The notes under the pieces were generated by a model. The model made no database searches and had not been told where the DNA came from. It saw nothing but the letters and a program-made list of their open reading frames with translations. A stretch of 38,440 nt of DNA from a virus (taxonomy: Duplodnaviria > Heunggongvirae > Uroviricota > Caudoviricetes). Positions 1 to 32,732 of this stretch are shown here, in pieces. Both the position numbers and the translations under genes were made by a program. Each line of letters opens with the position of its first letter. Positions within the stretch are counted from its first letter, which is position 1. The stretch lies in the IMG/VR virus record IMGVR_UViG_2663762939_000006; one strand, given 5' to 3'.

Positions 1-1149
1 TTAGATGCTTTTTAACGACGCGAACAGTGCCGCCCATTCGCTATCGGCGCGATAAAAGACCGGCGGCTTGCCGATGGGCGCATTAACGGTCACTTCCCCG
101 CCCCGGAATGCTTCACCCGTCCAGGCATGGACCCAGTTATCCTCCGGCAGATAGAGCGTCCAGTCGCTACGGCCTTCTTCATGCACCGGAGCGACCAGAA
201 TGTCGCGGCCTAACAGGTACTGATATTTCAGGGTGTAGGTCTGCGCGTCGTCTTCGTAATGCAGGAACAGCGGGCGCATGACCGGCAGACCGGACTTCGC
301 ATTCAGCGCGACGGCCTCTTTCAGATAAGGTTTCAGGGTGGTGAAGACGGTGGTCATACGGGCGAAATGGGCGATGGTTTCCGCGTCGCCGTCAAACTGC
401 CAGTTGTCGCCAGGACGGTTACCTTCGTGGGTGCGCATCATCGGCGTGAAGGCGCTGAAATCGCACCAGCGCAGCAGCAGCTCTTTGCTGCGCTTCATCT
501 CAAACAGGGTGGTGTAACCGCCAATGTCGCTGTGATGCAGGCCATGTCCGGTCATTGCCAGCGACAGCGCCGCCGGGACAACCGACGCCAGGCCATCGTC
601 GAGACTCCAGTCGACGTTCTGGTCGCCCGCCCACATCATGGTGGAGTATTTCTGGCTACCGGTAGAACCGGCGCGCATAAAGAAGAGGATCTCGCCGAGC
701 TTGCCCGTTTCTTCAAGGGCTTCGTAGTTACATTTCGCCCACAGCGCAGGCCAGGCGTTATGCATAATTTCCGCGCTGACGCCGTTATGCAGGTACGTGT
801 CGGTGGGCAGATACTCGCCGAAGTCAGCCATCCAGCCGCCGCAGCCAAGTTCAATCATGTTCTTTTTGATCACTTCCTTGAACCAGGCGTAGGCTTCTGG
901 ATTGGTGAGGTCGACAACGCCGCCATAGAACTCGCCAAACTCCACCAGATAGTCGCCGCCAGAGGCATCTTTTGCCAGATAACCGCGCTTTGCCGCCTCT
1001 TCGCAGAGATCTTTATCGCTGGCTACATACGGGTTGATATAGGCCAGGAACTGCACGCCCTCTTTGTTCCACTGCTTAATACGTGAGTCCAGTTGCGGAT
1101 AGTTTTCGCTGTTCCACTTCCAGTTGATGCGCCGCGCGATAAATGCACT
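1..1149 (-). pseudogene. yihQ: 3' portion of a GH31 glycoside hydrolase gene (YihQ/sulfoquinovosidase-like); upstream half missing, in-frame stop at 1150-1152
   Basis: ORF 1..1056 translation carries GH31-like motifs (GGWMADFGEYLP); frame stays open upstream to 1149 (..NWKWNSENYPQLD..) then stops; only ~380 codons present where ~680 are expected from memory. Confidence 0.55.
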
Positions 1150-1202
1150 CTATCTTGTGCGATAAATGGCATCCACGCGGCGTTTCATTATTTGAAAAAG
1201 AA

Positions 1203-1775
1203 TTACATTTCAGGTTGCGTTATGACAGTCCCAACAGGGTGGTAGCGGTAGATCGTTGACAGTCCAATATCATAGATAATTGCCAGCCGCTTTCTGTCAT
1301 ACCCTTTCTGGAGCAATCTTGCGATCTGCTCATGCTGCTCCTTCGTCAGTTTCGGGCGACGTCCTCCAACTCTCCCTTGTGCTCGCGCAGCAGCCAGTCC
1401 TGCCAGCGTGCGCTCAACTATCAGTTCACGCTCCATTTCTGCCAGTGCACCCATCATATGAAAAAAGAACCTTCCCATCGGAGTGCTGGTATCGATTGAA
1501 TCCGTCAGACTGCGAAAATTGACACCTTTTGCGCGTAGCTCTTCTGTGAGAGCAATGAGGTGTTTCATTCTTCTACCCAACCGATCCAGCTTCCAGACCA
1601 CCAATGTATCCCCTCTTTTAAGGCACTTTAAAGCGCGTTTCAGGCCTGGTCGTTCCGACTTGGTTCCGCTCATTTTGTCCTCAAAAATCTGTTCACATCC
1701 TGCGCACATTAATGCATTGCGTTGCAAATCTGTGTTTTGGTCATTTGTTGACACACGTATGTAGCCAATCAGCAT
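1203..1775 (-). CDS. gin: serine recombinase, DNA invertase of the Gin/Pin/Cin/Hin family
   Basis: Translation from ATG at 1773-1775 begins MLIGYIRVSTNDQNTDLQRNAL.. (catalytic Ser motif), closely matching Gin/Pin as recalled; SD AAGGGAG upstream; stop TAA at 1203-1205. Confidence 0.9.
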   Translation of the reverse strand: MLIGYIRVSTNDQNTDLQRNALMCAGCEQIFEDKMSGTKSERPGLKRALKCLKRGDTLVVWKLDRLGRRMKHLIALTEELRAKGVNFRSLTDSIDTSTPMGRFFFHMMGALAEMERELIVERTLAGLAAARAQGRVGGRRPKLTKEQHEQIARLLQKGYDRKRLAIIYDIGLSTIYRYHPVGTVITQPEM

Positions 1776-1829
1776 TAAAAATACTCCCTTTTGAGTGGTT
1801 AAAGTACTGAGATAATGTGGGGAGGATTT

Positions 1830-1855
1830 GAGAGATAAACGTTGGTTTGGGGGAA
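1830..1855 (+). other. candidate 26-bp invertase crossover site R3 (gix/hix-like), inverted relative to R1 and R2
   Basis: GAGAGATAAACG TT GGTTTGGGGGAA; shares half-site GGTTTGGGGGAA and TT core with the other two copies; lies ~55 bp upstream of gin as gixR does in Mu. Confidence 0.6.
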
Positions 1856-2308
1856 GGCTCTGCATTGCCTGTTGGTGTACCGGTTCCATGGCCCACCGCC
1901 ACACCGCCAGCAGGCTGGTTACAGTGCAACGGAGCTACGTTCACCAAAGAACAATATCCTGTTCTGGCCAGAGTCTACCCGACCCTCCGTCTTCCCGATT
2001 TGCGCGGTGAGTTTATCCGTGGATGGGACGGTGGTCGCAAGGTTGATACCGGGCGTACGGTACTTTCATTTCAGGAAGGGACTATCGTATCCGGTTTTGA
2101 TGATAATAATACCGGAGATATCAGTTCGCTCGGCTCTACACAATACGGATTTGGTGACGCTTTAACCTCTAATCAACTGGGGGTCATAAATGGCAAAAAG
2201 TGGATATTTGATGCATCCTCTAAAGGTGCACAAAGATATGACTGGTGGGCTTATGTATCAGCTCGCCCCCGCAATATCGCATTTAACTATATCGTGAGGG
2301 CGGCGTGA
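1847..2308 (+). CDS. alternative tail-fibre C-terminal cassette Sv3 (no ATG of its own; opens with the shared GEGSALPVGVPVPWPTATPP repeat)
   Basis: ORF starts at TTG inside the repeat; N-terminal ~65 aa identical or near-identical to an internal segment of the tail-fibre gene; ends ..RPRNIAFNYIVRAA like the other cassettes. Confidence 0.7.
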   Translation: MGEGSALPVGVPVPWPTATPPAGWLQCNGATFTKEQYPVLARVYPTLRLPDLRGEFIRGWDGGRKVDTGRTVLSFQEGTIVSGFDDNNTGDISSLGSTQYGFGDALTSNQLGVINGKKWIFDASSKGAQRYDWWAYVSARPRNIAFNYIVRAA

Positions 2309-2314
2309 TACCGT

Positions 2315-2929
2315 TCAACTGGCAAGTGCCAGTGGTGCTTCCGGCCAGCTGATTTCAGGTGCCGTGCTGATATCCAGTGCGTTCAGCTCGTCGATATAAT
2401 CCAGCACGGCGTTCAGTTTTGCCGTTTCTTCTGGTGTCAGACTGCGACCAGCACGCAGTTTGAGGTTGATAAGATCGACGGACGCCATCGCCTGTTTCAC
2501 CCGTTGCTGGCGTTGCTGTCTGGCAACCTCCAGTTCTGCGGTTCGCTGCCGTTCAGTATCGGTTACCCACGCCTCACCGTTCCAGGTATCCCATGGCGTG
2601 GCTGGCTGTTTTGTGGTGGTGTCCGCCGGGTAATCACCCGGTTGGGTAATCAGAACGGGGTTACCGTTCTCCGTGCTGTATACCGTCTCGCCGCGGTGAT
2701 CAGGCACATGCTCCCACCCGTTCAGCGTGGCAGTCCGGCAAACCACGTAACCCGAAATTGCCTCCGGCGGTGCATCGGCGCACGAATGTGCCGGAGTACC
2801 CACCCCAAGGGCGAGATACTCCACAGAGGATGAGGTGTATTCCCGGGTTTCCTCGTCATAGTGATATACAGTGATATCGCCCGCTACAGTGGCGATACCG
2901 TTTTCATCCAGAACTGCAGTGTTACTCAT
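2315..2929 (-). CDS. tail fibre assembly chaperone (Tfa / Mu U-like)
   Basis: ATG at 2927-2929 overlaps the Sv2 stop (TAATG); C-terminal region ..LTPEETAKLNAVLDYIDELNALDISTAPEISWPEAP is typical of the conserved Tfa chaperone domain. Confidence 0.75.
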   Translation of the reverse strand: MSNTAVLDENGIATVAGDITVYHYDEETREYTSSSVEYLALGVGTPAHSCADAPPEAISGYVVCRTATLNGWEHVPDHRGETVYSTENGNPVLITQPGDYPADTTTKQPATPWDTWNGEAWVTDTERQRTAELEVARQQRQQRVKQAMASVDLINLKLRAGRSLTPEETAKLNAVLDYIDELNALDISTAPEISWPEAPLALAS

Positions 2930-3441
2930 TAAACTGCCCTCACAATGTAATTAAGTGCAATGCTACGGGGTCTGACAGTGATACCCTTCGCATACCCGCT
3001 TCTGATAGAGGTCAGAATAGTAGCCTGCATACCATTGTCTGACATTGCTATGACAGGATCGCTGAATGTTGTCCCGTCCGGCATTTTAAAGCTGCCCTCA
3101 CGAAGGTCTGTAATGGAATCTTCATTGTTGAATCCCATGCCGACTATCCCCGAGGTTCCCGTAGTGTCCTGGTTATAATAATCCAGCATTGCTGTTCTTA
3201 ACAGCGTTGCCCCTTGTGCGGACAGCAACTTACGTCCTGTATCAACTTTGCGCCCGTCGTCCCATCCACGGATAAACTCACCGCGTAAATCGGGAAGACG
3301 GAGGGTCGGGTAGGCTCTGGCCAGAACAGGATATTGTTCTTTTGTAAAGGCGCGCCCGTCGCACTTTAACCAGCCTTCTGGCGGTGTGGCGGTGGGCCAT
3401 GGAACCGGTACACCAACAGGCAATGCAGAGCCTTCCCCCAA
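2929..3441 (-). CDS. alternative tail-fibre C-terminal cassette Sv2 (promoterless, same orientation as the expressed fibre)
   Basis: Begins at TTG within the shared repeat 9 bp after the tail-fibre stop; ends ..NYIVRAV; followed by tfa. Confidence 0.7.
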   Translation of the reverse strand: MGEGSALPVGVPVPWPTATPPEGWLKCDGRAFTKEQYPVLARAYPTLRLPDLRGEFIRGWDDGRKVDTGRKLLSAQGATLLRTAMLDYYNQDTTGTSGIVGMGFNNEDSITDLREGSFKMPDGTTFSDPVIAMSDNGMQATILTSIRSGYAKGITVRPRSIALNYIVRAV

Positions 3442-3458
3442 ACCAACGTTTAGGCCGC
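3433..3458 (-). other. candidate 26-bp invertase crossover site R2 (direct orientation relative to R1)
   Basis: On the minus strand GCGGCCTAAACG TT GGTTTGGGGGAA; ~75 bp around it is identical to R3 in inverted orientation. Confidence 0.55.
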
Positions 3459-4577
3459 CCTGACAATGTAGTTAAAGGCAATATTTCGTGGACGGGTTTC
3501 CCTCCCGCCAGTATTACCGATACTCCCTCGCGAATGAAGTGTTGGTGATGGGGTCAGACTCCCTCCTGTATTTGTGGCATCAAGTCCTCGTCCTTGTGTG
3601 TATGTTTTTTTGAAAATCGCAGCCAGTTCCCATTCATCTTTTGTGTCGTAACCATCATTGGCAACAACAATATGACGGTGTTTCTCAATCATTCCGCTCT
3701 GGCTGCTTAGCAGGGCACGCCCGGTGTCAATCTTTCGTCCGTCATCCCATCCACGGATAAACTCACCGCGCAAATCGGGAAGACGGAGGGTCGGGTAGAC
3801 TCTGGCCAGAACAGGATATTGTTCTTTGGTGAACGTAGCTCCGTTGCACTGTAACCAGCCTGCTGGCGGTGTGGCAGTGGGCCACGGAACAGGTACACCA
3901 ACGGGCAGCGCCGAGCCTTCCCCCAAACCAAGGTAATTGAGGACATCTTTTATACTGCCCTTAGCGATAATAGCGCGACCAATAGCTGTAAGGGTTGCCA
4001 GCGCTGCGCGGTCTGCTCCGGTAAAATAAGGCAACCGATCTGCTGCAGTGGCAAGTCCTGCCAGAGCAGTGAGCGTGGCATCTGCCGGTTGTTTTCCGTT
4101 TGCCAGATCGTATGCAGCCTTGACCGCTTTCGGTGTGGCGGCCAGTATTTCAGACGTGCTGTTGATGGCACTGCTCAGTTGTACGGTGCCTTTTGCCGTC
4201 AGCGAGGCAGCAGGCACTCCCGTTATCTGACTCCACGGGTGAGTGTGGCTGACGGGCGCCTTGCCGGCTGCAAGGTCGTATGCAGCCTTGACGGCTTTTG
4301 GTGTGGCGGCCAGCGTTTCAGAGGTGCTGTTGGTGGCACTGCTCAGTTGGGTGAACCCCTTAGCTGTCAGTGTCGCGTCCGGGTGGTTACGGGAACGTAC
4401 GTGTTCAGCCAGTGACTGTGCGGCTTCCTCCGTTTTTTTCTTCAGCCATTTCGTCCTGTTTGCCAGTTGCCGGGGGGCTCGATTTGATATCCCGTCTGCA
4501 CCACCCAGAACCGGATCTGATGTCTCCAGTTGATAGATATTTTCTTCCCACTTTTCTGTTTCATTCAGGTTTCCCAT
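3450..4577 (-). CDS. tail fibre protein (Mu S / P2 H-like) currently fused to cassette Sv1
   Basis: N-terminus ..NETEKWEENIYQLETSDPVLGG..RQLANRTKWL typical of Mu/P2/lambda side-fibre N-termini; ATG at 4575-4577 with SD GGGAG; stop TAA 3450-3452. Confidence 0.85.
   Translation of the reverse strand: MGNLNETEKWEENIYQLETSDPVLGGADGISNRAPRQLANRTKWLKKKTEEAAQSLAEHVRSRNHPDATLTAKGFTQLSSATNSTSETLAATPKAVKAAYDLAAGKAPVSHTHPWSQITGVPAASLTAKGTVQLSSAINSTSEILAATPKAVKAAYDLANGKQPADATLTALAGLATAADRLPYFTGADRAALATLTAIGRAIIAKGSIKDVLNYLGLGEGSALPVGVPVPWPTATPPAGWLQCNGATFTKEQYPVLARVYPTLRLPDLRGEFIRGWDDGRKIDTGRALLSSQSGMIEKHRHIVVANDGYDTKDEWELAAIFKKTYTQGRGLDATNTGGSLTPSPTLHSRGSIGNTGGRETRPRNIAFNYIVRAA
3918..3943 (-). other. 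candidate 26-bp invertase crossover site R1 inside the tail-fibre gene (constant/variable boundary)
   Basis: On the minus strand TCCTCAATTACC TT GGTTTGGGGGAA; about 17 of 26 positions match the Hin hixL site TTATCAAAAACCTTGGTTTTCAAGAA as recalled. Confidence 0.6.
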
Positions 4578-4579
4578 AA

Positions 4580-5158
4580 TCAACTGCTCCCGTGGTTATA
4601 ACTGCCATCATGGATGGCTGTATTGTTATAGCGAATGGCCACAGACTGATACTCCAGGCTGGCCAGATGGCAGCGGGCCGGTGCAAATGCAGCCAGCGTC
4701 TGACGCAGCATCGCGGCCTGATCGTTAGTAATGGGCTGTTTCAGAATAACGCGATAAACTGCCCAGGCGGCTGCATCTCCATGAACAAACAGTCCGTTAT
4801 AGCTGCGATTGCCGTCGTAACTGAGACGACCTGTGCCTTCAATCAGATCCACTTCACCAAAGCCAAAACGGCGGATAACTTCCCGGATTGACCACGGCGT
4901 CCCTTTATACCGGTGCAGTTCGATGGCTGCTTTTATAAGCATGCGGCGAACATCGTCCGATTCCGCCAGCTCCCAGCCATCGCCAGACAGTGAGAACTGC
5001 TCGCCCAGCCATGGCAGCGCGGAACTGTCGACGATATCGACGAGAAAGACCATCAGTACGCTCAGGTCGATGTTATCCAGCCGTCCTGCCAGTCTTCCCA
5101 GCGTCCTGAGACTGATATCACCCTCAAGCGGTGGCGGGAGTTGTAATGGCTCAGTCAT
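4580..5158 (-). CDS. tail protein (Mu gp48 / P2 gpI-like)
   Basis: Position between baseplate J and tail fibre; start ATG overlaps upstream stop (ATGACTGA); size and composition fit the family. Confidence 0.65.
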   Translation of the reverse strand: MTEPLQLPPPLEGDISLRTLGRLAGRLDNIDLSVLMVFLVDIVDSSALPWLGEQFSLSGDGWELAESDDVRRMLIKAAIELHRYKGTPWSIREVIRRFGFGEVDLIEGTGRLSYDGNRSYNGLFVHGDAAAWAVYRVILKQPITNDQAAMLRQTLAAFAPARCHLASLEYQSVAIRYNNTAIHDGSYNHGSS

Positions 5159-6254
5159 CAGACACTCCAGTCATGTTAAGAGTGATTGCCGTACAGTTTG
5201 CCCATTCGTTTTCTGCCACCACCCGCAGTGCCGGTGTCACCAGTTCAACCTGGTACACCCCGGAAACGGACAATGCACTGATAATCTGGCTGGGGACAAT
5301 ATCGCGCCCCAGCGTGGCGGCACGTGATGCCACCCAGTTCTGTATGGCGCTGTTAGCGGCATCTTTTACAGACCTGGCATCCTGATCACGATAGATCGTA
5401 ATCCTGGCTTCAATGGTGTAATCCACCTTCACTGGTGTTTTAGCCCGCACTGTATCAGTGAGTGGCCTGACTTTCTCATCAGAGCAGAAACTCTCTACCA
5501 GCGTGAGAACACCGCCGTCCGGCAGACCGGTACTGAGCAGCGGATACAGATCTACGGTCCCGGGAACCGGGGAAAGCACAGCAACATCGACAATGTTGGG
5601 ATGGGCCTGCATGGCATGAAAGCGGTATGCGCCACGGCTTCCGGCATTGGTGAATGACTCCGGGGCCAGCCTGATACGCTCCCGGAGCCTGTCATCGTCT
5701 TCCTGTTCTGAACCGCCGGAACTGGCCGTCAGATTGCTCACCAGCAGGTCGACGTTATCAATCTCATCGAGTAACTGACTGACCTGCGCAGGTTGCCAGC
5801 CGTTACCAGCGGTACCGGGTTCGGTACAGGTGGACGTGACATTGACCAGCAGCAATCCGGCCTTCAGTACCACATCTGTATCGGTGGCAAAAATAACGCT
5901 GTCGGAAGCGCTGACGCGGGTGCCTGCCGGGATCAGCACATCAATGGCCAGTGCCTCATCTACGGAGAACTGGAGCGTGGTGGTGGCAGGCTGCGCGGCA
6001 AGACGGTATACACCAACCAGTTCACCGAGGTAATCAATCATCGGCTCACGGGCAAAGGCGACCAGATTCTGCTTTGCTGCCTCCTGTACCGCAACCCTGA
6101 CCAGCATTTCGCGATAGGCCCACAGATCAATCAGCAGACGTTCTGCCTGTGCCGGGTACAGCGTTTTGCCGGTATCCGCTTCATACTTCGCAATCATTTC
6201 TGCCGTGATTTTGTCGGCATCGCGTTCAATAAAATCGGGTTCTGTCAGCGCCAT
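5151..6254 (-). CDS. baseplate J-like protein (Mu gp47)
   Basis: 367 aa, translationally coupled; position and size conserved in Mu/P2 baseplate modules. Confidence 0.7.
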   Translation of the reverse strand: MALTEPDFIERDADKITAEMIAKYEADTGKTLYPAQAERLLIDLWAYREMLVRVAVQEAAKQNLVAFAREPMIDYLGELVGVYRLAAQPATTTLQFSVDEALAIDVLIPAGTRVSASDSVIFATDTDVVLKAGLLLVNVTSTCTEPGTAGNGWQPAQVSQLLDEIDNVDLLVSNLTASSGGSEQEDDDRLRERIRLAPESFTNAGSRGAYRFHAMQAHPNIVDVAVLSPVPGTVDLYPLLSTGLPDGGVLTLVESFCSDEKVRPLTDTVRAKTPVKVDYTIEARITIYRDQDARSVKDAANSAIQNWVASRAATLGRDIVPSQIISALSVSGVYQVELVTPALRVVAENEWANCTAITLNMTGVSDD

Positions 6255-6592
6255 AGCAGCTCCTGAGTCCGGGTCTGTCCGTCTGAGCCTTTCCAGCTCA
6301 CCCGGAGCGTAAGATGTTCGCCGTCGACGGCGGGTTTAACTGACATAAGCTGGCAGCGGGGCTCCCAGCGCCGGATGGCATCGACGGATTCGCGCACCAC
6401 ATGCGGAATGGCCCGGTCTACAGGCCAGTCGATATAAAGATGCAGATTGCTGCCGAACTCCGGGCGATGCGGGTCGCTGCCGCGGGGAGTCCGCAGGATA
6501 ATTTGAATCGCCTGCCGGATATCATCCAGCCCCCGGACAATTTCGCCGGGAGCCTGCAGGGCTGGTTGCCAGAATACTGAGGTTGTTTTCAT
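6245..6592 (-). CDS. baseplate wedge protein, GPW/gp25 family (Mu gp46)
   Basis: 115 aa; ..PRGSDPHRPEFGSNLHLYIDWP.. typical of gp25/GPW fold proteins. Confidence 0.7.
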   Translation of the reverse strand: MKTTSVFWQPALQAPGEIVRGLDDIRQAIQIILRTPRGSDPHRPEFGSNLHLYIDWPVDRAIPHVVRESVDAIRRWEPRCQLMSVKPAVDGEHLTLRVSWKGSDGQTRTQELLWR

Positions 6593-6646
6593 GGGGGCAG
6601 TATTGCCCCCGTGCGGGAACGCTGATATTAAAGGCGTTTAAAAAGC

Positions 6647-7243
6647 TCAGTGGGAGTGGTGGCTGGAGTTTTCGCCATCAGACAACATACTGCCCGTGGC
6701 ATGGGCATTCCCTTTAATCTCGATATTGCCATGGATGGTCGCGGTAACACCTTCACCACCAGAACCCGCCATGCCTCCTTCGTAAATCAGTTTACCCCTG
6801 ACACGCAGATCTCCGGTAAGTTCGGTTTCCGGTGCGTCAATCGTGGCTTTCTGTGTTTTCAATACCACATCAGCACCACACTCAATGACAATATGCTCAA
6901 TGCCGCCCCGGATGATCAGAGTGTGCGTCTTCCGGTTGTAGCTGTACTCTGCACCATCAGCAAACCGGGTTCCCCGGATATTTTTGTCACTGAACGGTGG
7001 TTTATCGACGTCTGAATACACCGCGCCCAGAATAACACCATCCTCGCCGTTGGCATCGAGCAGCACCTCAACCTGCTCCCCCACGTCAGGGAGCCAGTAA
7101 TCTTTGTTATCCTGGGTATTGCGCTGCAGCACGTTAAGCCAGTTTGTGCGCAGGTTATCGCATTCAGGCAGACGAACGCGGGCCTGAACCCTGTCGGCAT
7201 CAACGGCACTGACCGTACCGACCTGACGAGTGACACCAGTCAT
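6647..7243 (-). CDS. baseplate assembly protein V / central spike (Mu gp45)
   Basis: 198 aa; gpV-like N-terminal OB region and Gly-rich C-terminus; position. Confidence 0.7.
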   Translation of the reverse strand: MTGVTRQVGTVSAVDADRVQARVRLPECDNLRTNWLNVLQRNTQDNKDYWLPDVGEQVEVLLDANGEDGVILGAVYSDVDKPPFSDKNIRGTRFADGAEYSYNRKTHTLIIRGGIEHIVIECGADVVLKTQKATIDAPETELTGDLRVRGKLIYEGGMAGSGGEGVTATIHGNIEIKGNAHATGSMLSDGENSSHHSH

Positions 7244-8394
7244 TTTTTCTTCTCCTTAATCACCGTCGATGTACTGCCATCCGGGTGATAAACCGTGAGT
7301 TTCTGAGTTTTTTGTTTTTTCCCTCTTGTGACTGGCCCCCGTGCCACTTCCAGCTCTGTGGTGTAGCCGCTGTTACGGTCAAACGCATGGCGGGCAGTGG
7401 TTATGAGCCATGGCCCGGATAACTGCCCAAAACCCACCAGTTCAATTTTGTTGCCTGCTGTCAGTTGAGGTGTTCCCGTCAGCGTCAGGGAGCCGTTCTG
7501 CTGGTATTCGTTATGTCTGGCCAGTGCTGAATCCGCTTTAATCCGGGCACTGTCCGGGTCGCTGACGCGGCTGTTAACTTTAAGTGAGTCAGCGCTGGTA
7601 ACCTTACCACCTTTGAGCTTTTTGTCGCTTTCACGGGTACCACCATCAGCTTCGTAGACGATCAGTTTTTTACTGCTGCTTTTCTGGTGTTTTACCTTTG
7701 CAGATTTATAGACCCGGTTGATGGTGTCACGCAGGGAAAAGCGGGCCACATCCTGCGGTTTTAACTGCCTGACCGGCTCCTGACTGCGCAGTGTGGCCAG
7801 ATGAGAAAAAATCAGCTGGTCACTGACCACTTTCACTGCATAACCATACTCGCTGGCCAGCCGGCGCAGAAAACCCACGTCGGTTTCAGCATACTGGGTC
7901 ACCCGGTCGATTCTGATGGACTCAATGCTGCCCACCAGTTTCAGCCGGTGCTTTCTGGCAATCCGCCCCGCAACAGCTGCCAGCGTGGTGTTCTCAAAAC
8001 CACGGCTGGATTTAGTCCGCAGAGCACTGTTAACCGAGGTGGCCACCCCACGGATAGCGACAACGGACGCGGGCGAACTCACTTCGATCTCGTCTATTGA
8101 GAATGTACCGCAGGACAGCAGTTTCTCGCCCTGATAACCCATTTTCAGCGTCAGCGTGTCACCCTTGCCCGGATACCACTTATCCAGCCAGCGGCCATCG
8201 GTGTCGTCCAGCTCCACCTCAATGGTATCGGACTCATTTTTGATGTTATCGCTCCAGGTCACACGGGTGACATAAGGCGCGATATCAGAGGTGATGTTTT
8301 TCTGCAGATACCACAGAGTGAATACCGGCGTCAGCACATCGCTGACGCCGGTTAACGCTGATGTGGCTTGCGCAGTACTGTTTATCTCAGCCAT
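7240..8394 (-). CDS. tail/baseplate hub protein (Mu gp44 / P2 gpD-like)
   Basis: 384 aa; position between DNA-circulation protein and spike; lysine-rich C-terminus. Confidence 0.65.
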   Translation of the reverse strand: MAEINSTAQATSALTGVSDVLTPVFTLWYLQKNITSDIAPYVTRVTWSDNIKNESDTIEVELDDTDGRWLDKWYPGKGDTLTLKMGYQGEKLLSCGTFSIDEIEVSSPASVVAIRGVATSVNSALRTKSSRGFENTTLAAVAGRIARKHRLKLVGSIESIRIDRVTQYAETDVGFLRRLASEYGYAVKVVSDQLIFSHLATLRSQEPVRQLKPQDVARFSLRDTINRVYKSAKVKHQKSSSKKLIVYEADGGTRESDKKLKGGKVTSADSLKVNSRVSDPDSARIKADSALARHNEYQQNGSLTLTGTPQLTAGNKIELVGFGQLSGPWLITTARHAFDRNSGYTTELEVARGPVTRGKKQKTQKLTVYHPDGSTSTVIKEKKK

Positions 8395-8594
8395 GGGGCA
8401 ATATCCTCTTCTGTACGGGCATCTTCAGCCTCAATCACCGGGATCAGTAACAACAACCCGGAGGGCAGCACCGGCGTGATGGCCACGTGCGGATTGGCTG
8501 CAATAATCCGGGGATAGCCCAGCGGGTCACCGTAGTACTGCCATGCCAGCGAATCCCAGCGCTCTCCGTCACGGGTAATATGTTCAAGAAACAT
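8382..8594 (-). CDS. tail protein X-like (LysM-like small tail protein)
   Basis: ..WDSLAWQYYGDPLGYPRIIAANPH..LPSGLLLLIP resembles the P2 gpX family; ATG at 8592-8594 overlaps the upstream stop (TGATG). Confidence 0.6.
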   Translation of the reverse strand: MFLEHITRDGERWDSLAWQYYGDPLGYPRIIAANPHVAITPVLPSGLLLLIPVIEAEDARTEEDIAPWLR

Positions 8595-9478
8595 CACACA
8601 CTCCTCGTCAGTATTCTGGCGGCCATTGCACTTAATCCCGGAGACATGCGGTTGAATGCTGTGCCGGCGGCGTTAAGCTGCCCGGAAACGGTATCCAGAG
8701 CACCTGCAATATTTCTTTTGTCCACACCACTCAGCGCAGACTGTGCCTGCTGTACATACGTGGCTGCTTCGCTGGCTGTTCTGGCCAGACTGATGGCATC
8801 GGGCATGGATTCAGAGAGTGCGTTAAACGCCGGAACACTTTTCCCCAGAGCCCCGGAGATATTACCCAGTCCGCTCATCAGCCCCGGCACACGGGTCAGT
8901 GCGACAACGGGGTTATCCTTCATTTTCTGTGTCACCCGAACGGCGCTGATAGTGGTCTGGAGTACAGACTGCGCCTGTTTCGCATAGTTGACGCCGTTGC
9001 GGATGAACTGCGCCACCCCTGAAGGCGAAGGAATGGCACCGGAGACCGCCCCGACACCCGGGAGCTTCGTGCGTATTGCCGGTGGTTGCAGAGGATTTTT
9101 CGGGTCACCGGTGTATTCCCGGAGAGACACGGTGGCACTGACAGCCAGCACGTTGCCGGTATTGTCAGTCTGCTCGCTGGTTGCAGTCACATCGGTAATC
9201 ACGAACCAGCCGCGATAGTCACCGTTGCCGAAGACCAGCGCCAGTGCCTGATGGGCTTTCATGGCTGTTCGCAGTCTCGCCAGCTCCACATCGGGTACAC
9301 AATAATGCTGATGGAAAACCAGAGTTATCTGGATTTCGTCCAGCCTGTCGCCGACGAACTGCAGGCCAGGCTTACCCCCGATGCGGGCATGCTCCGCATA
9401 ATCGACGCCGAACGTGGCCTCGAAGCCGTCCCAGTAGGTAATCAGCTCAAACTCAATATCACCCAGTACGGCAAACAT
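8594..9478 (-). CDS. DNA circulation protein (Mu N-like)
   Basis: 294 aa directly downstream of tape measure, overlapping stop/start; position as in Mu. Confidence 0.6.
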   Translation of the reverse strand: MFAVLGDIEFELITYWDGFEATFGVDYAEHARIGGKPGLQFVGDRLDEIQITLVFHQHYCVPDVELARLRTAMKAHQALALVFGNGDYRGWFVITDVTATSEQTDNTGNVLAVSATVSLREYTGDPKNPLQPPAIRTKLPGVGAVSGAIPSPSGVAQFIRNGVNYAKQAQSVLQTTISAVRVTQKMKDNPVVALTRVPGLMSGLGNISGALGKSVPAFNALSESMPDAISLARTASEAATYVQQAQSALSGVDKRNIAGALDTVSGQLNAAGTAFNRMSPGLSAMAARILTRSV

Positions 9479-12400
9479 CAGCGGTACTCCTTACGTTGTT
9501 TCTGAGCCAGCAGACGCTCCAGCATTTTTTCCAGCTCATGCAGACTCATATTCAGGGCACCAGTCAGTCCTGCAGGCGCTGTGGTTTCCCTGCCATTGAG
9601 GAAAAACTGAGGATTAAAGCTGACCTGGATACCACCAGACGTTCCACCGCCGGTTGCAGCTGCACCACGGCCTGAATATCCGGCAGCCATGATTTCAGGC
9701 GAGGGGATACGGGGAACATCCGGTGTCATCTCATTTGCCAGACGTTGCCCTGGTAAAATCGATGCCCGGGTGGAGAGCGGGATAGCGGGCATGGAAGACA
9801 AACTATTGATTACGGCTCCGATCGCATTTTTAGCAGACGACATAAACCCATTGATATCGGGCAACGGCATACTGAAGCGAACACCTGAAGTGTTATCCCG
9901 TATTTCTGGCCCCTGAATGCTCACGGGCATTCTGGGGAGCAGTTCACTGGCCATTCGCTGCCCGGCCAGAGCTGCAAGCGGAGTGGTCCGCTGCAGGCCA
10001 ATGGCGGCCCCCTGCGCGATATTGTCACCAAAGCCCATAAACACGCGGCTCGGCGAATGAATGCCCAGCTTTTCGCTGAACCAGCCACTGATGCTGTCGC
10101 CCATTCCGGTTACACTGGATTTGAGCGACTCCCATTTGTTTTTGATACCGTTAATCAGACCGTCGACAAGATGGCCACCGAAGTCGGTGAACTTTGCCGG
10201 CAGATCAACACCAAGATATTTCAGCGCAGCTGCAAAGGCTTTATAGAGCAGACCTGCCGGCGACCAGTTAATCAGCAGCTTACCAGTTCCCGCGATACCG
10301 CCGTTAAAGGCTTCCTGAATGTCAGCCCAGCACTGTTTAAACCAGCTACTGATGCTGTCACCCATTCCGGTTACACTGGATTTGAGCGACCCCCATTTGT
10401 TTTTGATACCGTTAATCAGACCGTCGATAAGATGGCCACCGAAGTCGGTGAACTTTGCCGGCAGAGCAACGCCGAAATATTTCAGCGCAGCCGCAAAGGC
10501 TTTATAGAGCAGGCCTGCCGGCGACCAGTTAATCAGCAACTTACCAATTCCCACAATGCCGCCGTTAAAGGCTTCCTGAATGTCAGCCCAGCGCTGTTTA
10601 AACCAGCTACTGATGCTGTCACCCATTCCGGTTACACTGGATTTGAGCGACCCCCATTTGCTTTTGATACCGTTAATCAGACCGTCGATAAGATGGCCAC
10701 CGAAGTCGGTGAACTTTGCCGGCAGAGCAACGCCGAAATATTTCAGCGCAGCCGCAAAGGCTTTATAGAGCAGGCCTGCCGGCGACCAGTTAATCAGCAA
10801 CTTACCAATTCCCACAATGCCGCCGTTAAAGGCTTCCTGAATGTCAGCCCAGCGCTGTTTAAACCAACCACTGACAGCCCCCCAGTTGCGGTAGATAAGG
10901 TAAGCTGCTGTCGCGACAGCGGTGATAACGAGACCGATGGGATTCATCATCAGCGCTCGCCCAATCCAGAGAACGGCACGTGCAGCGCTCATAAAACCGC
11001 GAACGAGGCTGCCCGCCAGAACTTTGCTGAGTTTCAGTCCTCCGCTGGTCAGTCGGCTGAATCCAGTGACAAGCCAGCGTAATTTGCCACCTTCTCCGAG
11101 TGCGGTAGTCAGTCGATGCCAGTTGGTCCGGAGTAAAACAGTAGTTTTCCAGACGTTCACAAAGGGGGAAATAAGGAGATTCAGCCCCAGTTTGAGACCA
11201 ACAGTCGCTATCTTAATCGCAAGGAGCGCACTGATGAGCTTAAAAGCCCCACTGACAAATTGCGGGTGAGTCGCTACCCAGTGTTTTGTCCCCTGAATGA
11301 GTGGGAGCAGTTCCTGAGTCAGAGAAATAAAAGATGGAGCTAATTGATCGCCCAGCGTAATTGCCAGATCGCGACTGCTGACCATAAGTGTTTTAGTGGC
11401 TTCAAGGGGAGATTTCAGCCGCTGATCATAAGCACTGGCAAGCAAATCGTTATCCGCAGCCCTGAGAGCACCGGCACGGATCTCTCGATATCTGTCCATG
11501 TTGGCCAGCATCGGGCGGATAAATGCCATGACCTGCATATCCGCGAACATATCGCCCAGACCAAAGTTTTTCGCCAGAGCCTGAAGTGCCTCATCTCTTG
11601 CCGTATCATTCTTTATTTTCATGGCTGATTTGAAGCCGGCCAGCGCTTCGGGGCTTTTGGCATTGAGGTAACGTTCTATAACACTCAACATCCCTTCAAT
11701 CGGAGAGATCCCCGCAGCTTTATAACTCGCAATAGATCCCTGCAAATCAATACCCAGATCAGCAAACTGTTTCTGAGTATCGCGGGCAAAAATTTTGGTA
11801 AGAAAGTTTTTAAAATTATTGGCTGCTTCGTCGGTGGAACCTGCACCGATTTTTGCTATCTGGAGACTGGCCCCGATTTCAGCAACAGCCTCTTTTCCAC
11901 TGGCAAGACCCGCCATCATTGGGGCCAGGGACTGCATCCACTTGACCTGATCCGGGATTTCAAATGACCCCTGGTCACCGGCATAAGCCATAATATTCTG
12001 AACGGCACCAAAATCTCTGGCCGCACCTTTCAGGGAGTTTTGCCAGACTGCGGCCACTTTTGCCCAGTCCTGAGCAGACGTGCGTGTTGCCGTTGCCGCG
12101 CGGGCAATATCCGGCATCAGAAAACCGATATCTGACACATTATCAATATTGTCGCTGATGAGTGAACCCACCGCCTCCTGCAGCTCATCCTGATACTGAT
12201 TGTATTTAAGCGCCCAGCCTTTTATCTGTCCGGCAAGTGCATCCCGCGTTTTATTGTCATATTTTGCGGTGATCGACATATCAATCATTTTGTCCTGAAA
12301 AGACATGGACTGCTGAACGGCAGGGGAAACCGTATGATAAACAGTCTGTGCCATGCCATACGCTTCAATCCCCTGACCATACAGCGCCATGCGGTTAGCT

Positions 12401-12690
12401 TTCAGCGCATCACTGGTAGCGGATGCCGCTGACAGACGGCGCTGCTGGCGCTCAATTTGCTCCATGGTGCGGCTTACCCGCAGCAGCTCGCTGTTGAGAT
12501 GCTGCATCCGGGAAGAACCCAGTTGACCATAACGTTCTGTTGCACGGGTTAAAGCGTTCTGACGTTCCTGCAGGCGGCGTGAGGTATCGCTCAGGGAATC
12601 AAGCGCACGGCGGGTACCGCTCATTGCAGAACGGAATGTGCTGCCAATCATCCCGCCGATAACAACGCCGACTGAAAACTGTCCCGACAT
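9478..12690 (-). CDS. tail tape measure protein
   Basis: 1070 aa, Ala/Gly-rich with predicted coiled-coil and TM-like segments; three internal ~87-aa tandem repeats; follows the chaperone pair. Confidence 0.85.
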   Translation of the reverse strand: MSGQFSVGVVIGGMIGSTFRSAMSGTRRALDSLSDTSRRLQERQNALTRATERYGQLGSSRMQHLNSELLRVSRTMEQIERQQRRLSAASATSDALKANRMALYGQGIEAYGMAQTVYHTVSPAVQQSMSFQDKMIDMSITAKYDNKTRDALAGQIKGWALKYNQYQDELQEAVGSLISDNIDNVSDIGFLMPDIARAATATRTSAQDWAKVAAVWQNSLKGAARDFGAVQNIMAYAGDQGSFEIPDQVKWMQSLAPMMAGLASGKEAVAEIGASLQIAKIGAGSTDEAANNFKNFLTKIFARDTQKQFADLGIDLQGSIASYKAAGISPIEGMLSVIERYLNAKSPEALAGFKSAMKIKNDTARDEALQALAKNFGLGDMFADMQVMAFIRPMLANMDRYREIRAGALRAADNDLLASAYDQRLKSPLEATKTLMVSSRDLAITLGDQLAPSFISLTQELLPLIQGTKHWVATHPQFVSGAFKLISALLAIKIATVGLKLGLNLLISPFVNVWKTTVLLRTNWHRLTTALGEGGKLRWLVTGFSRLTSGGLKLSKVLAGSLVRGFMSAARAVLWIGRALMMNPIGLVITAVATAAYLIYRNWGAVSGWFKQRWADIQEAFNGGIVGIGKLLINWSPAGLLYKAFAAALKYFGVALPAKFTDFGGHLIDGLINGIKSKWGSLKSSVTGMGDSISSWFKQRWADIQEAFNGGIVGIGKLLINWSPAGLLYKAFAAALKYFGVALPAKFTDFGGHLIDGLINGIKNKWGSLKSSVTGMGDSISSWFKQCWADIQEAFNGGIAGTGKLLINWSPAGLLYKAFAAALKYLGVDLPAKFTDFGGHLVDGLINGIKNKWESLKSSVTGMGDSISGWFSEKLGIHSPSRVFMGFGDNIAQGAAIGLQRTTPLAALAGQRMASELLPRMPVSIQGPEIRDNTSGVRFSMPLPDINGFMSSAKNAIGAVINSLSSMPAIPLSTRASILPGQRLANEMTPDVPRIPSPEIMAAGYSGRGAAATGGGTSGGIQVSFNPQFFLNGRETTAPAGLTGALNMSLHELEKMLERLLAQKQRKEYR
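10060..10865. repeat. three tandem ~261-bp in-frame repeats inside the tape measure gene
   Basis: Unit starts at ~10081, 10342 and 10603 (CCAGC[C/T]ACTGATGCTGTC.CCCATTCCGG..); copies 2 and 3 nearly identical, copy 1 slightly diverged; 261-bp period preserves frame. Confidence 0.85.
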
Positions 12691-12765
12691 AGTGGTTAAC
12701 CTCCGGGGAAGGTGAAAAGACGTGAGGGGATAACGCAGAACAGCCGCTACTGGCGGCTGTCTGTA

Positions 12766-12862
12766 CTATGATTTGTCGCCGTACTCGCTTTTGATTTGCT
12801 CTTCAGCCTGCTCCAGCCACATCTCCAGATCGTCAGTATCGAGGGCATCAATCTCCCCCGGC
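12766..12862 (-). other. frameshift extension of the tail assembly chaperone (GT/E'-like long product), in the +1 (= -2) frame
   Basis: Second ORF overlaps the 3' end of the chaperone ORF and extends 82 nt past its stop; G5 run GCC GGG GGA GAT TGA at 12848-12862 is a candidate slip site. Confidence 0.5.
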
Positions 12863-13183
12863 TGAAACCGGAACCATCTCGCCAGCAGCCCCTGCGCCTG
12901 CGTCAGCGCCCTGGTTGCTCTCACCCATCCCCGTGATGAGCTGAAATCGTTTCTGTAACTGCAGGTAATCAGCCAGATCCATATTGTCGAGATCTTCCGG
13001 GAGAAGACCAGTACTGCGGGCAATCAGCGGTTCGTCCCAGTCTGCCGGGTTTTTGCTGATTTTGCGCACCTGCTTCAGGTCTTTTACCGTCAGGCGTTTC
13101 AGTTCAACCAGCTCAATTCTGGTGCCTGCAGCAGTGGTGAAGGGATAAGACAATTTAAAAGTATCGGATGGGGTCTGTGACAT
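12848..13183 (-). CDS. tail assembly chaperone (G/E-like, short product)
   Basis: ATG at 13181-13183 with SD AGGAG; acidic C-terminal part; sits between tube and tape measure. Confidence 0.7.
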   Translation of the reverse strand: MSQTPSDTFKLSYPFTTAAGTRIELVELKRLTVKDLKQVRKISKNPADWDEPLIARSTGLLPEDLDNMDLADYLQLQKRFQLITGMGESNQGADAGAGAAGEMVPVSAGGD

Positions 13184-13280
13184 GATTGTGCTCCTGTGTA
13201 AGTTCAGGGCAGTATGTCGGGAGAAGCGCGTGACGGATATTAAAGGAGATTAAGAAGAAGGGGCCGGAGCCCCTGTGATG

Positions 13281-13562
13281 TCAGCAAGTGCGAAACCCCT
13301 TGCAGTTACGCAGGAAAGCGATGAGAAGCGTCTTTCCCTCAGATTTGCCGATGCCGGAGAACCAGTGGTCGGGAGGCTCCCATGCTTCAATCAAATCCGC
13401 CAGTTTGCGGGCCTTTGAACGTGTGCAGTCAATCGGGTCATTGGTTTTACGGGTATTAAAAAGGGTTTCCACCCCCGGAATATCAAGGAGGGTAAACCAC
13501 GTACCATTTGACATGCCCAGTGCCGCACATCGTCCTCCTTTATCCGTCAGTTCAACACTCAC
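13281..13562 (-). CDS. hypothetical small protein downstream of tail tube
   Basis: 93-aa ORF tightly packed after the tube gene, but an equally long antisense ORF exists; coding status uncertain. Confidence 0.3.
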   Translation of the reverse strand: MSVELTDKGGRCAALGMSNGTWFTLLDIPGVETLFNTRKTNDPIDCTRSKARKLADLIEAWEPPDHWFSGIGKSEGKTLLIAFLRNCKGFRTC

Positions 13563-13564
13563 CG

Positions 13565-14086
13565 TCAGCCCCCGATATTGATACGGTAGTCAGTCAGTTG
13601 ATCAACACCGCCGACCCGGAAGATGTTGGCCAGATAGTCCAGTTGCAGCAGCTCTTCACCATCCAGTACCTGTCTGATATACGTGCAGGTGAAGCTACTG
13701 GAGAACTCGGCGTTCTCGTGCTGTTTGAACGTCCCCAGCGGGTTCTTCTTGAACATAATCGTCAGGAAGGTGACCAGCGGGATTTCGTCAATCAGCCCCT
13801 GCGAGCTGTAGCGCTGGACGCTGGAACGACACTGCAGTGCCAGCGACCTGTACGGGTTCGCGGCAGACAGCATCGCATCGCGGTAAAAGCTGTTCCATTT
13901 GATTTCGCCTTCCAGCTTGTCAAAACCAGCCGGGAGTTCCACCTTACCCACCATCCCCAGCGCCTTGTGTTCCTGCATAATCATGGAGACATCGGGGAGT
14001 TTGACTTCCTCAGCCCGTCCCAGCAGGTTAGTACCATCCAGATAGATGTTGGCATTCGTGATGCGGTTTATCTCAATCTTTGACAT
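13565..14086 (-). CDS. tail tube protein (Mu M-like)
   Basis: 173 aa immediately downstream of sheath, overlapping stop/start; conserved sheath-tube order. Confidence 0.75.
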   Translation of the reverse strand: MSKIEINRITNANIYLDGTNLLGRAEEVKLPDVSMIMQEHKALGMVGKVELPAGFDKLEGEIKWNSFYRDAMLSAANPYRSLALQCRSSVQRYSSQGLIDEIPLVTFLTIMFKKNPLGTFKQHENAEFSSSFTCTYIRQVLDGEELLQLDYLANIFRVGGVDQLTDYRINIGG

Positions 14087-15513
14087 CAGTTGCCCCCTTT
14101 CAGGGTTAACAGGTATTCCGAGGTGATCTCAGTCTCAAACGTCAGTCGCTCCAGCGGCGGTGGTGGCGTATATTTGTAGCTCAGCAACAGGTGCCCGGCG
14201 GCCAGCTCCGTCTCCGGATTGCGGGCCGGATCAAACCAGCAACGGAAGCCCAGTACCGCACCATCACCAGTCATTTTGCGACCGTAGGCGTTGACCGACT
14301 CCGTCAGTGCATCAATCAGCGCCTGAGTAATCGGCATGTCGATGTACTGCTGGCTGAAATAACGAATGGACTCGTTGATCACATCACCGGTGCGGCGAAC
14401 GTTCTCAAAGTTACGCATATGGGTGACCGTTGGCCATGCTGCCGTCCGGTTACCCCACAGACGAAGGCCGCTGCCGTAACTGCTGAATACCGTGGTGATC
14501 CCCTGTTCGTTAAGCAGGTTCACCTCACTCTGCGGGTCATCAATCATCGCGGACAGCTGGCGCTCCACGCCGGTGATCCCCAGAATCTCCTGATTGGAGG
14601 ATGACCACCAGTAGCCCTTGTCCAGATCGACTCTGGCACGCAGACCTGCTGCACGCTGGCTGAGCGGCTCCAGACGCTCTGTGTTTGTCACCGGGTCATA
14701 TACCTTCACATGCGGATAGCACAGACGGACGCGGTCGGAGCTGGTATTGAAGTTGATGGTGCCTTCCGGGCCACGACCTGCCAGAGCCTGTGCAAAGGTG
14801 GTACCGACAGGCGCATCAATGTAGGTTATCGCGCCCAGCTTCTCTGCCATGGCGATAAGCTCAACTGCGACACTCTTCTGGGTGCAGAACACCGGCGCAA
14901 TCAGAATTTTGGCGAAATAGCCGTACAGGTTGAAGCTGTCGTTAAGCAGCTTCATGCCGGTTCGGTTTCCGGCGCTGTTCACCCCGCCGATGATGTCCGC
15001 CGCAGTCACCTTCGACGGGTCCGCGTACTCATAGCTCACCTTCACGCTGCCACCGGCCTCAATAGCCTTGCCCAGGTTCGTGAGCACACCCGCCTGCGCA
15101 TCAACACGGTAGTCCGTGTTCGCCGTGTGGGTGGTGCTGCCTTCACTGTTTTTCACCACCACATTAGCGACAACCGGATGCGCCAGTCTGGCCTGCCCTG
15201 TCGATTTGTCAAAGGTAACCACCTCATCCTCGATCGCCGTTTTATGTTTCGCCGGGTCGAGGACGTTAATGACCAGAACGGTGCCTGCACCATGGTCATA
15301 AATCGCATCCAGCGCCTGCGGAATGGTAAAGCCGGTGAACTGGCTGCCAAATGCCGCTGCGTCTTTCTCAGACAGGCACTGTACCAGCGTATTGACATCC
15401 CCCATCGGGGCGGTACCAATCAGGCCAATAACGGCAGATTTCACCGTTTTAACCGGGCGGGCTCCGTTTTCCACCTCAATGGTTTCGGGACCATGCAGAT
15501 AGTTAGCTGCCAT
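14086..15513 (-). CDS. contractile tail sheath protein (Mu L-like)
   Basis: 475 aa; size, position and sequence character typical of myovirus sheath. Confidence 0.8.
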   Translation of the reverse strand: MAANYLHGPETIEVENGARPVKTVKSAVIGLIGTAPMGDVNTLVQCLSEKDAAAFGSQFTGFTIPQALDAIYDHGAGTVLVINVLDPAKHKTAIEDEVVTFDKSTGQARLAHPVVANVVVKNSEGSTTHTANTDYRVDAQAGVLTNLGKAIEAGGSVKVSYEYADPSKVTAADIIGGVNSAGNRTGMKLLNDSFNLYGYFAKILIAPVFCTQKSVAVELIAMAEKLGAITYIDAPVGTTFAQALAGRGPEGTINFNTSSDRVRLCYPHVKVYDPVTNTERLEPLSQRAAGLRARVDLDKGYWWSSSNQEILGITGVERQLSAMIDDPQSEVNLLNEQGITTVFSSYGSGLRLWGNRTAAWPTVTHMRNFENVRRTGDVINESIRYFSQQYIDMPITQALIDALTESVNAYGRKMTGDGAVLGFRCWFDPARNPETELAAGHLLLSYKYTPPPPLERLTFETEITSEYLLTLKGGN

Positions 15514-15754
15514 GGGCGTCCTCCGTTTTCACTTCGCTGTCACTGCTGCTTCTGCGCTTTGGTGACTGCACAGCCGGTGTGACGGCGGGTTTAGTATCTT
15601 CTGGTTCCGGCGTCAGATGCTTCAGCGCCACCAGTACCTTCACGTAGTCATGCTCCTCCGGCAGGGAAACCGTCTTCCCCGGCCAGAGCAGGATTTCGGT
15701 TCCGTCCGACAGCGTGACGCCGCTGGCCGGGCCGGAATAGCGGTATTCTTTCAT
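15503..15754 (-). CDS. hypothetical virion/assembly protein (Mu gp38-like position)
   Basis: Small ORF coupled to neighbours (ATG at 15752-15754 overlapping upstream stop). Confidence 0.5.
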   Translation of the reverse strand: MKEYRYSGPASGVTLSDGTEILLWPGKTVSLPEEHDYVKVLVALKHLTPEPEDTKPAVTPAVQSPKRRSSSDSEVKTEDAHGS

Positions 15755-16664: not shown

Positions 16665-16665
16665 G

Positions 16666-17004: not shown

Positions 17005-17013
17005 AACGCCTCC

Positions 17014-17967: not shown

Positions 17968-17981
17968 GCTCTCTCCTTAAA

Positions 17982-19770: not shown

Positions 19771-19772
19771 TG

Positions 19773-24133: not shown

Positions 24134-24135
24134 AA

Positions 24136-30949: not shown

Positions 30950-30952
30950 CCA

Positions 30953-32722: not shown

Positions 32723-32732
32723 GGAGGGAAAC

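Follow-up and report, generated by a model that had tools for sequence, protein, structure and literature searches.

The stretch of DNA considered here, the 38,440-nt IMG/VR virus record IMGVR_UViG_2663762939_000006 (Caudoviricetes; referred to below, at its full length, as the window), carries a Gin-family serine DNA invertase gene next to a tail-fibre gene, together with three copies of a repeat and three alternative 3' ends for the fibre gene. We propose that this locus is very probably a three-site Gin-type multiple-inversion switch, or mini-shufflon, that exchanges the receptor-binding tip on the tail fibre of the prophage. The design is already known; what the window holds is a further copy of such a system, carried by a Mu-like prophage. 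An earlier sequence-only reading of the window had described the three repeats and contrasted them with the two sites and two cassettes of the classic Mu G segment; most of its architecture is upheld below, but the novelty that it implied is not, since multi-site versions have been published for the Min system of p15B and for a prophage module of enteropathogenic Escherichia coli (EPEC).

A repeat search of the window found three copies of a 218-232-nt repeat with 87-93% identity. The copies form one direct pair, 3232-3449 and 3717-3934 (87% identical), and two inverted pairs, 1836-2067 (+) with 3221-3452 (-) (232 nt, 90%) and 1839-2056 (+) with 3717-3934 (-) (218 nt, 93%). Each copy begins with a 26-bp gix/pix-like site composed of a variable left half, a TT core and the right half GGTTTGGGGGAA, and all three translate in frame to GLGEGSALPVGVPVPWPTATPP...RGEFIRGWD, so that both the three site-headed repeats and their common coding product had been read correctly from the letters. 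The repeat search and the site alignment also confirm the proposed orientation, in which R1 and R2 (both minus) are direct and R3 (plus), next to gin, is inverted relative to both (Table 1). The motif TTGGTTTGGGGGAA, with up to 2 mismatches allowed, occurs exactly 3 times in the window, in every case at R1, R2 or R3; 0.33 occurrences would be expected by chance, and none of 100 shuffles gave as many as 3. R1 lies inside the fibre gene, as had been stated, but the placement of R2 at 9 bp after the fibre stop codon has to be corrected. R2 overlaps the stop, with the TAA at 3452-3450 lying in its left half, and it is the repeat-encoded open reading frame (ORF; TTG at 3441) that starts 9 bp past the fibre stop.

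The supposed kinship of these sites with the gix/hix/cix family holds in a position-by-position alignment. R1, R2 and R3 align with Mu gix, which reads TTATCCAAAACC TC GGTTTACAGGAA in the deposited Mu record, and with e14 pixL (CTCTCGAAAACC TT GGTTTGGGAGAA) and pixR (TTTTCATAAACG TT GGTTTGGGAGAA) from the K-12 record, the TT core being common to e14. Their layout is that of two imperfect 12-bp inverted half-sites around a 2-bp core, and the core is identical in all three window sites. The left half of R1 is identical to the 'Phi2_5prime' site of E. coli EC958, while R3 is identical to the PacBio-defined 'Phi2_3prime' site of the same strain (PMC4134206 Table 3).

Table 1. Features of the tail-fibre switching locus in the window and the four isomers (orientation of cassettes and U shown by arrowheads)
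Feature	Position	Strand	Description
Gin-family serine DNA invertase gene	1203..1775	minus	190 aa; catalytic Ser9 in MLIGYIRVSTNDQ; C-terminal helix-turn-helix (HTH)
Presumed Fis-bound recombinational enhancer (approximate)	1619..1681		inside 5' part of invertase gene
Crossover site R3 (gin-proximal)	1830-1855	plus	GAGAGATAAACG-TT-GGTTTGGGGGAA; core 1842-1843
Cassette Sv3, silent C-terminus	1844..2308	plus	Pfam Collar 7e-16; starts at R3, converges on tfa
Tail-fibre assembly gene (U/Tfa-like)	2315..2929	minus	Caudo_TAP 5.5e-28; PHROG 105 'tail fiber assembly' 5e-88
Cassette Sv2, silent C-terminus	2929..3444	minus	Pfam Collar 3e-16; promoterless
Crossover site R2 (internal)	3458-3433	minus	GCGGCCTAAACG-TT-GGTTTGGGGGAA; core 3445-3446; fibre stop codon in left half
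Cassette Sv1, fused to Sc, expressed	3450..3929	minus	Pfam Collar 2.4e-15
Crossover site R1	3943-3918	minus	TCCTCAATTACC-TT-GGTTTGGGGGAA; core 3930-3931; inside fibre gene, at Sc/Sv boundary
Sc, constant 5' fibre part	3930..4577	minus	216 codons, ends ...KDVLNYL; ATG 4577-4575; Pfam Phage_fiber_2 repeats 1e-38
Tail-fibre gene, native	4577-3450	minus	375 aa; equals WP_075288365.1
P2 gpI-like gene	4580-5158	minus	directly precedes tail-fibre gene
Small invertible segment B	1830..3458		R3 to R2, 1,629 bp; Sv3, U, Sv2
Large invertible segment A+B	1830..3943		R3 to R1, 2,114 bp
Isomer I1 (this window)			gin. Sv3> <U <Sv2. <Sv1. Sc; expresses Sc-Sv1
Isomer I2 (B flipped)			gin. Sv2> U> <Sv3. <Sv1. 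Sc; expresses Sc-Sv1
Isomer I3			gin. Sv1>. Sv3> <U <Sv2. Sc; expresses Sc-Sv2
Isomer I4			gin. Sv1>. Sv2> U> <Sv3. Sc; expresses Sc-Sv3

Read from right to left on the minus strand, the gene order is the gpI-like gene, the fibre gene, R2, Sv2 and tfa, followed by Sv3 on the opposite strand, R3 and the invertase gene, which is located 55 bp beyond R3. The fusions Sc-Sv1, Sc-Sv2 and Sc-Sv3 are all in frame across the junction ...NYL/GLGEGS.... Sv1 and the left half of R2 together make up the 485-bp segment A, and Sv3 consists of a collar half from the 1836-2067 repeat, a unique tip and a conserved RPRNIAFNYIVRAA end. The distal part of the fibre is homologous to the T4 gp37 tip (PDB code: 2XGF, E 1e-17), with a match that spans the N-terminal collar part, a His-x-His motif and the C-terminal end NIAFNYIVR. 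The great length of the repeat relative to the crossover site is explained by what it encodes, namely the conserved N-terminal collar half common to the three tips, after which the variable receptor-binding part is inserted. The three tips presumably differ in host range, and presumably also in whether they need the single Tfa. A promoter scan gave no sigma-70-like promoter in 1100-4700, which is weak negative evidence; such an absence fits expression via gene fusion to Sc. The Tfa gene is the sole one in the segment and lies directly downstream of Sv2; a PDB sequence search with Tfa gave no relative. It is noted that the silent cassettes are repeatedly annotated as 'incomplete phage tail protein'.

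The assignment of the recombinase is based on profile and structure-linked sequence matches. The invertase matches Pfam Resolvase (8e-51) and HTH_7 (1e-12) as well as PHROG 125 'DNA invertase' (1e-94), and it aligns with the Mu Gin structures 4m6f and 3uj3 over residues 1-181 (phmmer, E 2e-93), with Ser9 present within RVSTNDQ. The recombinase beside the invertible segment belongs to the serine resolvases/invertases, and no tyrosine recombinase was found there. Over its first 300 nt, the invertase gene aligns gap-free to its counterparts gin of Mu and pinE of e14. The recombinational enhancer of Mu, Hin and Cin lies in the 5' part of the invertase gene. A Fis-bound enhancer of this kind brings the sites into alignment for inversion (PMC3798978). 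Two Fis-like 15-mers, GAGGACAAAATGAGC centred at gene nt 101 and GCGCTTTAAAGTGCC near nt 147 (the second recognised by eye), are situated at the same positions as in Mu, and the motif scan matches are weak and degenerate. These 15-mers are thus only suggestive of a putative enhancer at this place.

The composition of the sites sets the range of possible arrangements. Each site combines a flank-specific left half with a cassette-borne right half, and Sv1 bears a left half at its 3' end; therefore, only four arrangements keep three proper sites. Sc ends exactly at a 26-bp site, and each cassette starts with the right half and the TT core, followed by about 215 nt of collar-coding sequence. In the proposed mechanism, the invertase would cut the TT core of two inverted sites and rotate the strands, probably within an invertasome assembled on the Fis-bound enhancer, with a 2-nt stagger of cleavage at TT and subunit rotation as expected from the family. 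The four isomers would then form a cycle linked by the large and the small inversion, both overlapping inversions being possible in any state. Starting from I1, one large inversion would bring Sv3 into expression, and Sv2 would need two successive inversions. An R2xR3 event alone would flip the Sv2-U-Sv3 block and leave the expressed fibre unchanged. Deletion by R1xR2, which are direct sites, is expected to be rare or disfavoured if the enzyme is enhancer-dependent like wild-type Gin. One relative, AHB1, has two sites and could be either a deletion product or an ancestor, as its junction carries no discriminating polymorphism. In I2 and I4, the Tfa gene is antisense to the fibre operon and would not be transcribed together with Sv3 (or, in I2, with Sv1); such tips would either have to fold unaided or be served by a Tfa with a promoter of its own.

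Natural genomes contain the predicted arrangements. Matches to the module were found in 1,063 of 5,426 complete E. coli genomes, with 232 of these covering at least 80% of the query, and isomers were classified on 19 fetched loci. Typing by BLAST coverage, piece count or span was rejected as ambiguous, since I1 and I3 give the same 2,695-bp span. All four isomers were found in complete genomes at one chromosomal position, that of the aroA-adjacent prophage corresponding to Phi2 of sequence type 131 (ST131): I1 in AR_0086, AZ 189 and S5; I2 in Ecol_656; I3 in EC958, ST131 (CP103710) and R8; and I4 in FDAARGOS_1266 and AH19F006. Use of R2 is evident from isomers I2, I3 and I4 in these related genomes. 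The alleles of the window are also encountered in another arrangement, FORC_031 being isomer I3 with a gin/Sv1 junction 100% identical to the window alleles over 874 bp. An exact-sequence look-up in public E. coli assemblies returned all three fusions: Sc-Sv1 as WP_075288365.1, the 387-aa Sc-Sv2 fusion verbatim as HCN7779624.1 / HDK0720772.1, and the 370-aa Sc-Sv3 fusion verbatim on 4 contigs. The natural isomers and the verbatim fusions substantiate the earlier claim of at least three fibre C-termini produced by inversion, except for the contribution assigned to R2xR3, which by itself is silent.

To put numbers on both inversions, a junction census was made over the same complete genomes with queries built so that non-cognate isomers stay below 80% coverage. 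It covers four junctions; gin/Sv3, gin/Sv2, Sc/Sv2 and Sc/Sv3 were left out because the joining of BLAST pieces on the same strand gives false positives. The L2/Sv2 and L2/Sv3 junctions are present in 185 and 205 genomes, respectively, and the gin/Sv1' and Sc/Sv1' junctions in 286 and 156. Both inversions are therefore polymorphic at comparable frequency.

The aroA-adjacent loci also allow the point of exchange to be located. In all nine loci, the 230-nt repeat of each cassette has 0 differences whichever left flank is joined to it, while the repeats mutually differ by ~12%, and the first polymorphic base is found at +6 of the right half-site. The Sv2 of this lineage has a variant right half, GGTTTAGGAGAA, which always travels with Sv2, and the three left halves stay with Sc, the Sv1 3' end and gin, respectively. 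From the unchanged cassette repeats and the GGTTTAGGAGAA linkage, exchange is therefore placed within at most 7 nt including the core, which is the signature of site-specific and not of homologous recombination. The isomers could otherwise be thought to come from RecA-dependent homologous recombination between the 215-230-nt repeats instead of invertase action at the 26-bp sites. The repeats are indeed long and similar enough (87-93%) for such exchange, and the mosaic structure of R1, R2 and R3, taken with seven Sv3-repeat differences from FORC_031, indicates that some conversion among the repeats occurs. However, homologous crossovers would spread along the 215 nt and leave chimeric repeats, whereas every exchange fell at the core and the nine loci, representing all four isomers, keep their repeats whole despite the divergence between them. 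We consider an origin of the isomers in homologous recombination to be very improbable.

It is hardly credible, in turn, that only the outer sites R1 and R3 work, with R2 and Sv2 as the dead relic of a duplication in an ordinary two-state switch like the G segment. This reading can draw on the EC958 paper, which gives only two crossover sites and one 2,067-bp inversion, and on the left half of R2, the least consensus-like of the three at the outer positions. Yet I2 and I3, which are unreachable from I1 without an internal site, are common; the Sc-Sv2 fusion on the Sc of the window exists verbatim; and the homologous EPEC locus has a separately quantified 'small inversion'. The EC958 Phi2 locus (NZ_HG941718.1 1003500-1010500) was found to contain a third, internal site, GGCATAGAAACG-TT-GGTTTGGGGGAA, between Sv1' and Sv3 at locus positions 2480-2505, and this site is overlooked in Table 3 of the original paper. 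A further alternative accepts the three-site architecture and regards this particular copy as a frozen fossil, whether because the invertase is silent, because enhancer function is missing or because the prophage is defective. Defects are frequent among such prophages, as in a relative whose gin contains an IS66 element and in EC958 Phi2 with its disrupted Sc, and activity in the window's own strain is presumed. Against this stand the full-length gin with its catalytic serine and HTH, the three sites that are perfect in core and right half, the intact fibre ORF, the identical alleles arranged as another isomer in FORC_031, and the occurrence of all three fusions on this Sc in public assemblies. 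A frozen copy appears improbable to us.

Several considerations nevertheless count against the three-site switch as proposed. By count, the Fis-like 15-mers are 46 bp apart and not at the canonical 48 bp, and both the enhancer and the dependence on Fis are presumed from homology. A second invertase present in the cell could supply the activity in trans. Only I1 and I3 have the single Tfa gene in the orientation of the fibre operon. The census at 80% coverage includes related modules, so that its two totals differ (390 vs 442). Finally, we infer the current activity of the copy in the window; inversion in growing cultures has been shown by others on close relatives, namely EC958 Phi2, which is 97% identical, and the homologous EPEC locus.

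In the window, the repeats are mosaic: counted from the site, R2 equals R3 for roughly the initial 100 nt, and R1 equals R3 at about nt 80-200 (window 1856-1935, 3353-3432 and 3717-3917; L012 5892-6092). Compared with FORC_031, the Sv3 repeat of the window has 7 differing positions (nt 17-53), while the unique part of Sv3 is identical. Taken together, the mosaicism and these differences suggest patchy gene conversion near the crossover sites.

Two further observations on natural isolates should be mentioned. Four urinary tract infection isolates from Sweden, 4/0, 4/4, 4/1-1 and 2/0 (NZ_CP023849, CP023826, CP023844 and CP023853), apparently from one study, have differing junction types at about the same chromosomal position, ~1.00-1.06 Mb; the differing junctions among these similarly named isolates suggest switching on short time scales. 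In strain S5 (NZ_CP107137.1 4796690-4806627), the invertase gene is split by ISEc23, an IS66-family element, and the locus is in I1, which makes it a natural 'locked' control.

Exchange may also reach beyond a single prophage. In E. coli 4/0 (NZ_CP023849.1 997409-1007066; 955000-1001500), a precise reciprocal exchange is seen between two prophages ~44 kb apart, in which the aroA-adjacent one takes part with its gin-proximal site and the other, a P2-like prophage, with its Sc site. Both products, Sc2-TT-Sv3 and gin-TT-cassette of the P2-like prophage, have 0 differences in repeat and cassette, and the exchange inverts aroA-serC-pflB-dmsABC plus most of the P2-like prophage. This rearrangement looks like an invertase-mediated chromosomal inversion between prophages, although it could be an assembly artefact. 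The same module (Sv2, U and Sv3 at 95-100% identity) is found behind quite different fibre shafts. It is carried by the 94-kb P1-like phage-plasmid pF374-2 (NZ_OY754373.1 65616-75272), and also by true P2-like prophages, whose invertase is of a second type (WP_001375851.1, 74% nt identity) and whose gin-side half-site is a different one, AAAACGAAAACG. Invertases could recombine sites located in different prophages, and a cassette of the Sv1 type, bounded by a right half on the 5' side and a left half on the 3' side, could be released as a circle via R1xR2 and be captured at any compatible site. Strain 4/0 and the presence of the module behind different invertases and shafts suggest that an inter-element reaction happens at least occasionally. 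The broader idea, that the crossover sites are a common currency among co-resident Mu-, P2- and P1-like elements, by which tips would be traded and host segments inverted site-specifically, is put forward tentatively and seems to us rather doubtful.

The prophage in the window is a Mu-like transposable one, as shown by its rve transposase, AAA+ protein, Mu-type portal, sheath and tape-measure protein. One end adjoins a truncated host gene at about position 1140; the truncated glycoside-hydrolase gene at 1-1140 is presumably yihQ-like. Near this end, GCGATAAATG occurs twice (~1134 and ~1160) and is similar to CGATAAATGC, the motif bound by the transposase at the right end of Mu. The window ends inside the prophage, at position 38440. 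The rve transposase and AAA+ genes are on the plus strand (30038-33899), and the late and tail genes (4580-24139) and gin are on the minus strand, so that the early and late regions converge from opposite strands. In Mu itself the early and late regions run the same way, unlike in this prophage.

A switch of this kind lets one prophage hedge among three receptor specificities. The module is common: roughly 150-290 of the 5,426 complete E. coli genomes have its junctions, and the pandemic ST131 lineage is among the carriers. In practice, mixed isomers can yield spurious contigs in assembly, and host-range prediction for engineered phages or tailocins depends on the tip that is expressed. Conceptually, nothing here goes beyond Min (1990-92) and the EPEC three-repeat module (2014); the increments are the cross-genome census, the mapping of the exchange to the core and the unreported third site of EC958 Phi2.

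Among the classic two-site systems, Mu G/Gin, P1 C/Cin and e14 P/Pin share with the window a homologous invertase, the same 26-bp site layout and an invertase gene that directly flanks the segment. As in the Mu G/P1 C type, a constant Sc outside the segment is fused in frame to a promoterless Sv, unlike the promoter flip of the Hin type. The relationship to e14 is especially direct, since its pixR and the start of the stfE cassette (GLGEGSALPVG...) are homologous to those of the window. Mu G, P1 C and e14 P differ in having two sites, two cassettes and two isomers, each cassette with its own tfa (U/U', TfaP/TfaE), whereas the window has a third site at the Sv1 end and only one tfa. The R64-type shufflons and the Rin system of Bifidobacterium phages resemble the window in that one recombinase performs multiple inversions, by which one of several C-terminal cassettes is selected for an adhesin or receptor-binding protein. 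They rely, however, on tyrosine recombinases (Rci, Rin) and short asymmetric sites (PMC6109161), in contrast to the serine invertase and the 26-bp dyad sites of the window. The window is thus not an R64-type shufflon, which would have an Rci-type tyrosine recombinase acting on sfx sites.

In the Min system of p15B, as in the window, a constant fibre part goes with alternative 3' cassettes, crossover sites and isomers both number more than two, and the invertible segments overlap. Min, studied by Sandmeier, Iida and Arber in 1990-1992, reportedly lies on a P1-like plasmid and has six mix sites, with isomers in the hundreds. Published accounts describe a single Gin-family invertase that acts on more than two sites and overlapping segments to assemble a variable fibre gene (PMC6109161, PMC5786510). 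With three sites and four isomers, the window holds a smaller version and not the Min region itself.

The closest relatives are two prophage loci for which inversion has been described. For EC958 Phi2, Forde et al. (2014, PLoS One 9:e104400; PMC4134206) found the 2,067-bp segment in both orientations by PacBio sequencing of one culture and listed its ends as GAGAGATAAACGTTGGTTTGGGGGAA, which is the sequence of R3, and TCCTCAATTACCTTGGTTTAGGAGAA; their report gives only these two sites. Its invertase gene has 99.5% nt identity to that of the window, Sv2, U and Sv3 are 97-99% identical, and the gin-proximal site and the Sc left half-site are the same. The differences are found in the Sv1 allele and its 3' half-site (GGCATAGAAACG), in the GGTTTAGGAGAA right half of Sv2, in the location of the prophage beside aroA and in an Sc annotated as disrupted. 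For the P2-like prophage of EPEC O127:H6 E2348/69, Goldberg et al. (2014, Genome Med 6:112; PMC4272514) described 'three partially homologous IRs' (inverted repeats) with two inversions, one large and one small, four variants present together in culture, as confirmed by the polymerase chain reaction, and 'three alternative carboxyl termini'; the coordinates NC_011601.1 1891695-1893703 and a 215-bp repeat beginning ACCTTGGTTTGGGGGAAGG are listed in their Table S1. In our comparison with NC_011601.1 1889500-1897500, this module likewise has three ~215-bp repeats starting with ACCTTGGTTTGGGGGAAGG, and the TT core and the GGTTTGGGGGAA right half are present at all three sites. The large and small inversions are nested and share one end in both loci (2,009 and 1,577 bp there, 2,114 and 1,629 bp here), and the two have in common the gene order, the four isomers, the three C-termini, the adjacent serine invertase and the single tfa between two convergent cassettes. 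The EPEC module differs in that it resides in a true P2-like prophage, whereas the one described here belongs to a Mu-like transposable prophage; its invertase has ~74% nt identity and its repeats are ~70% identical to those of the window; and its cassette alleles are different, one of them being 82% identical to the Sv1 of the window but placed in another position.

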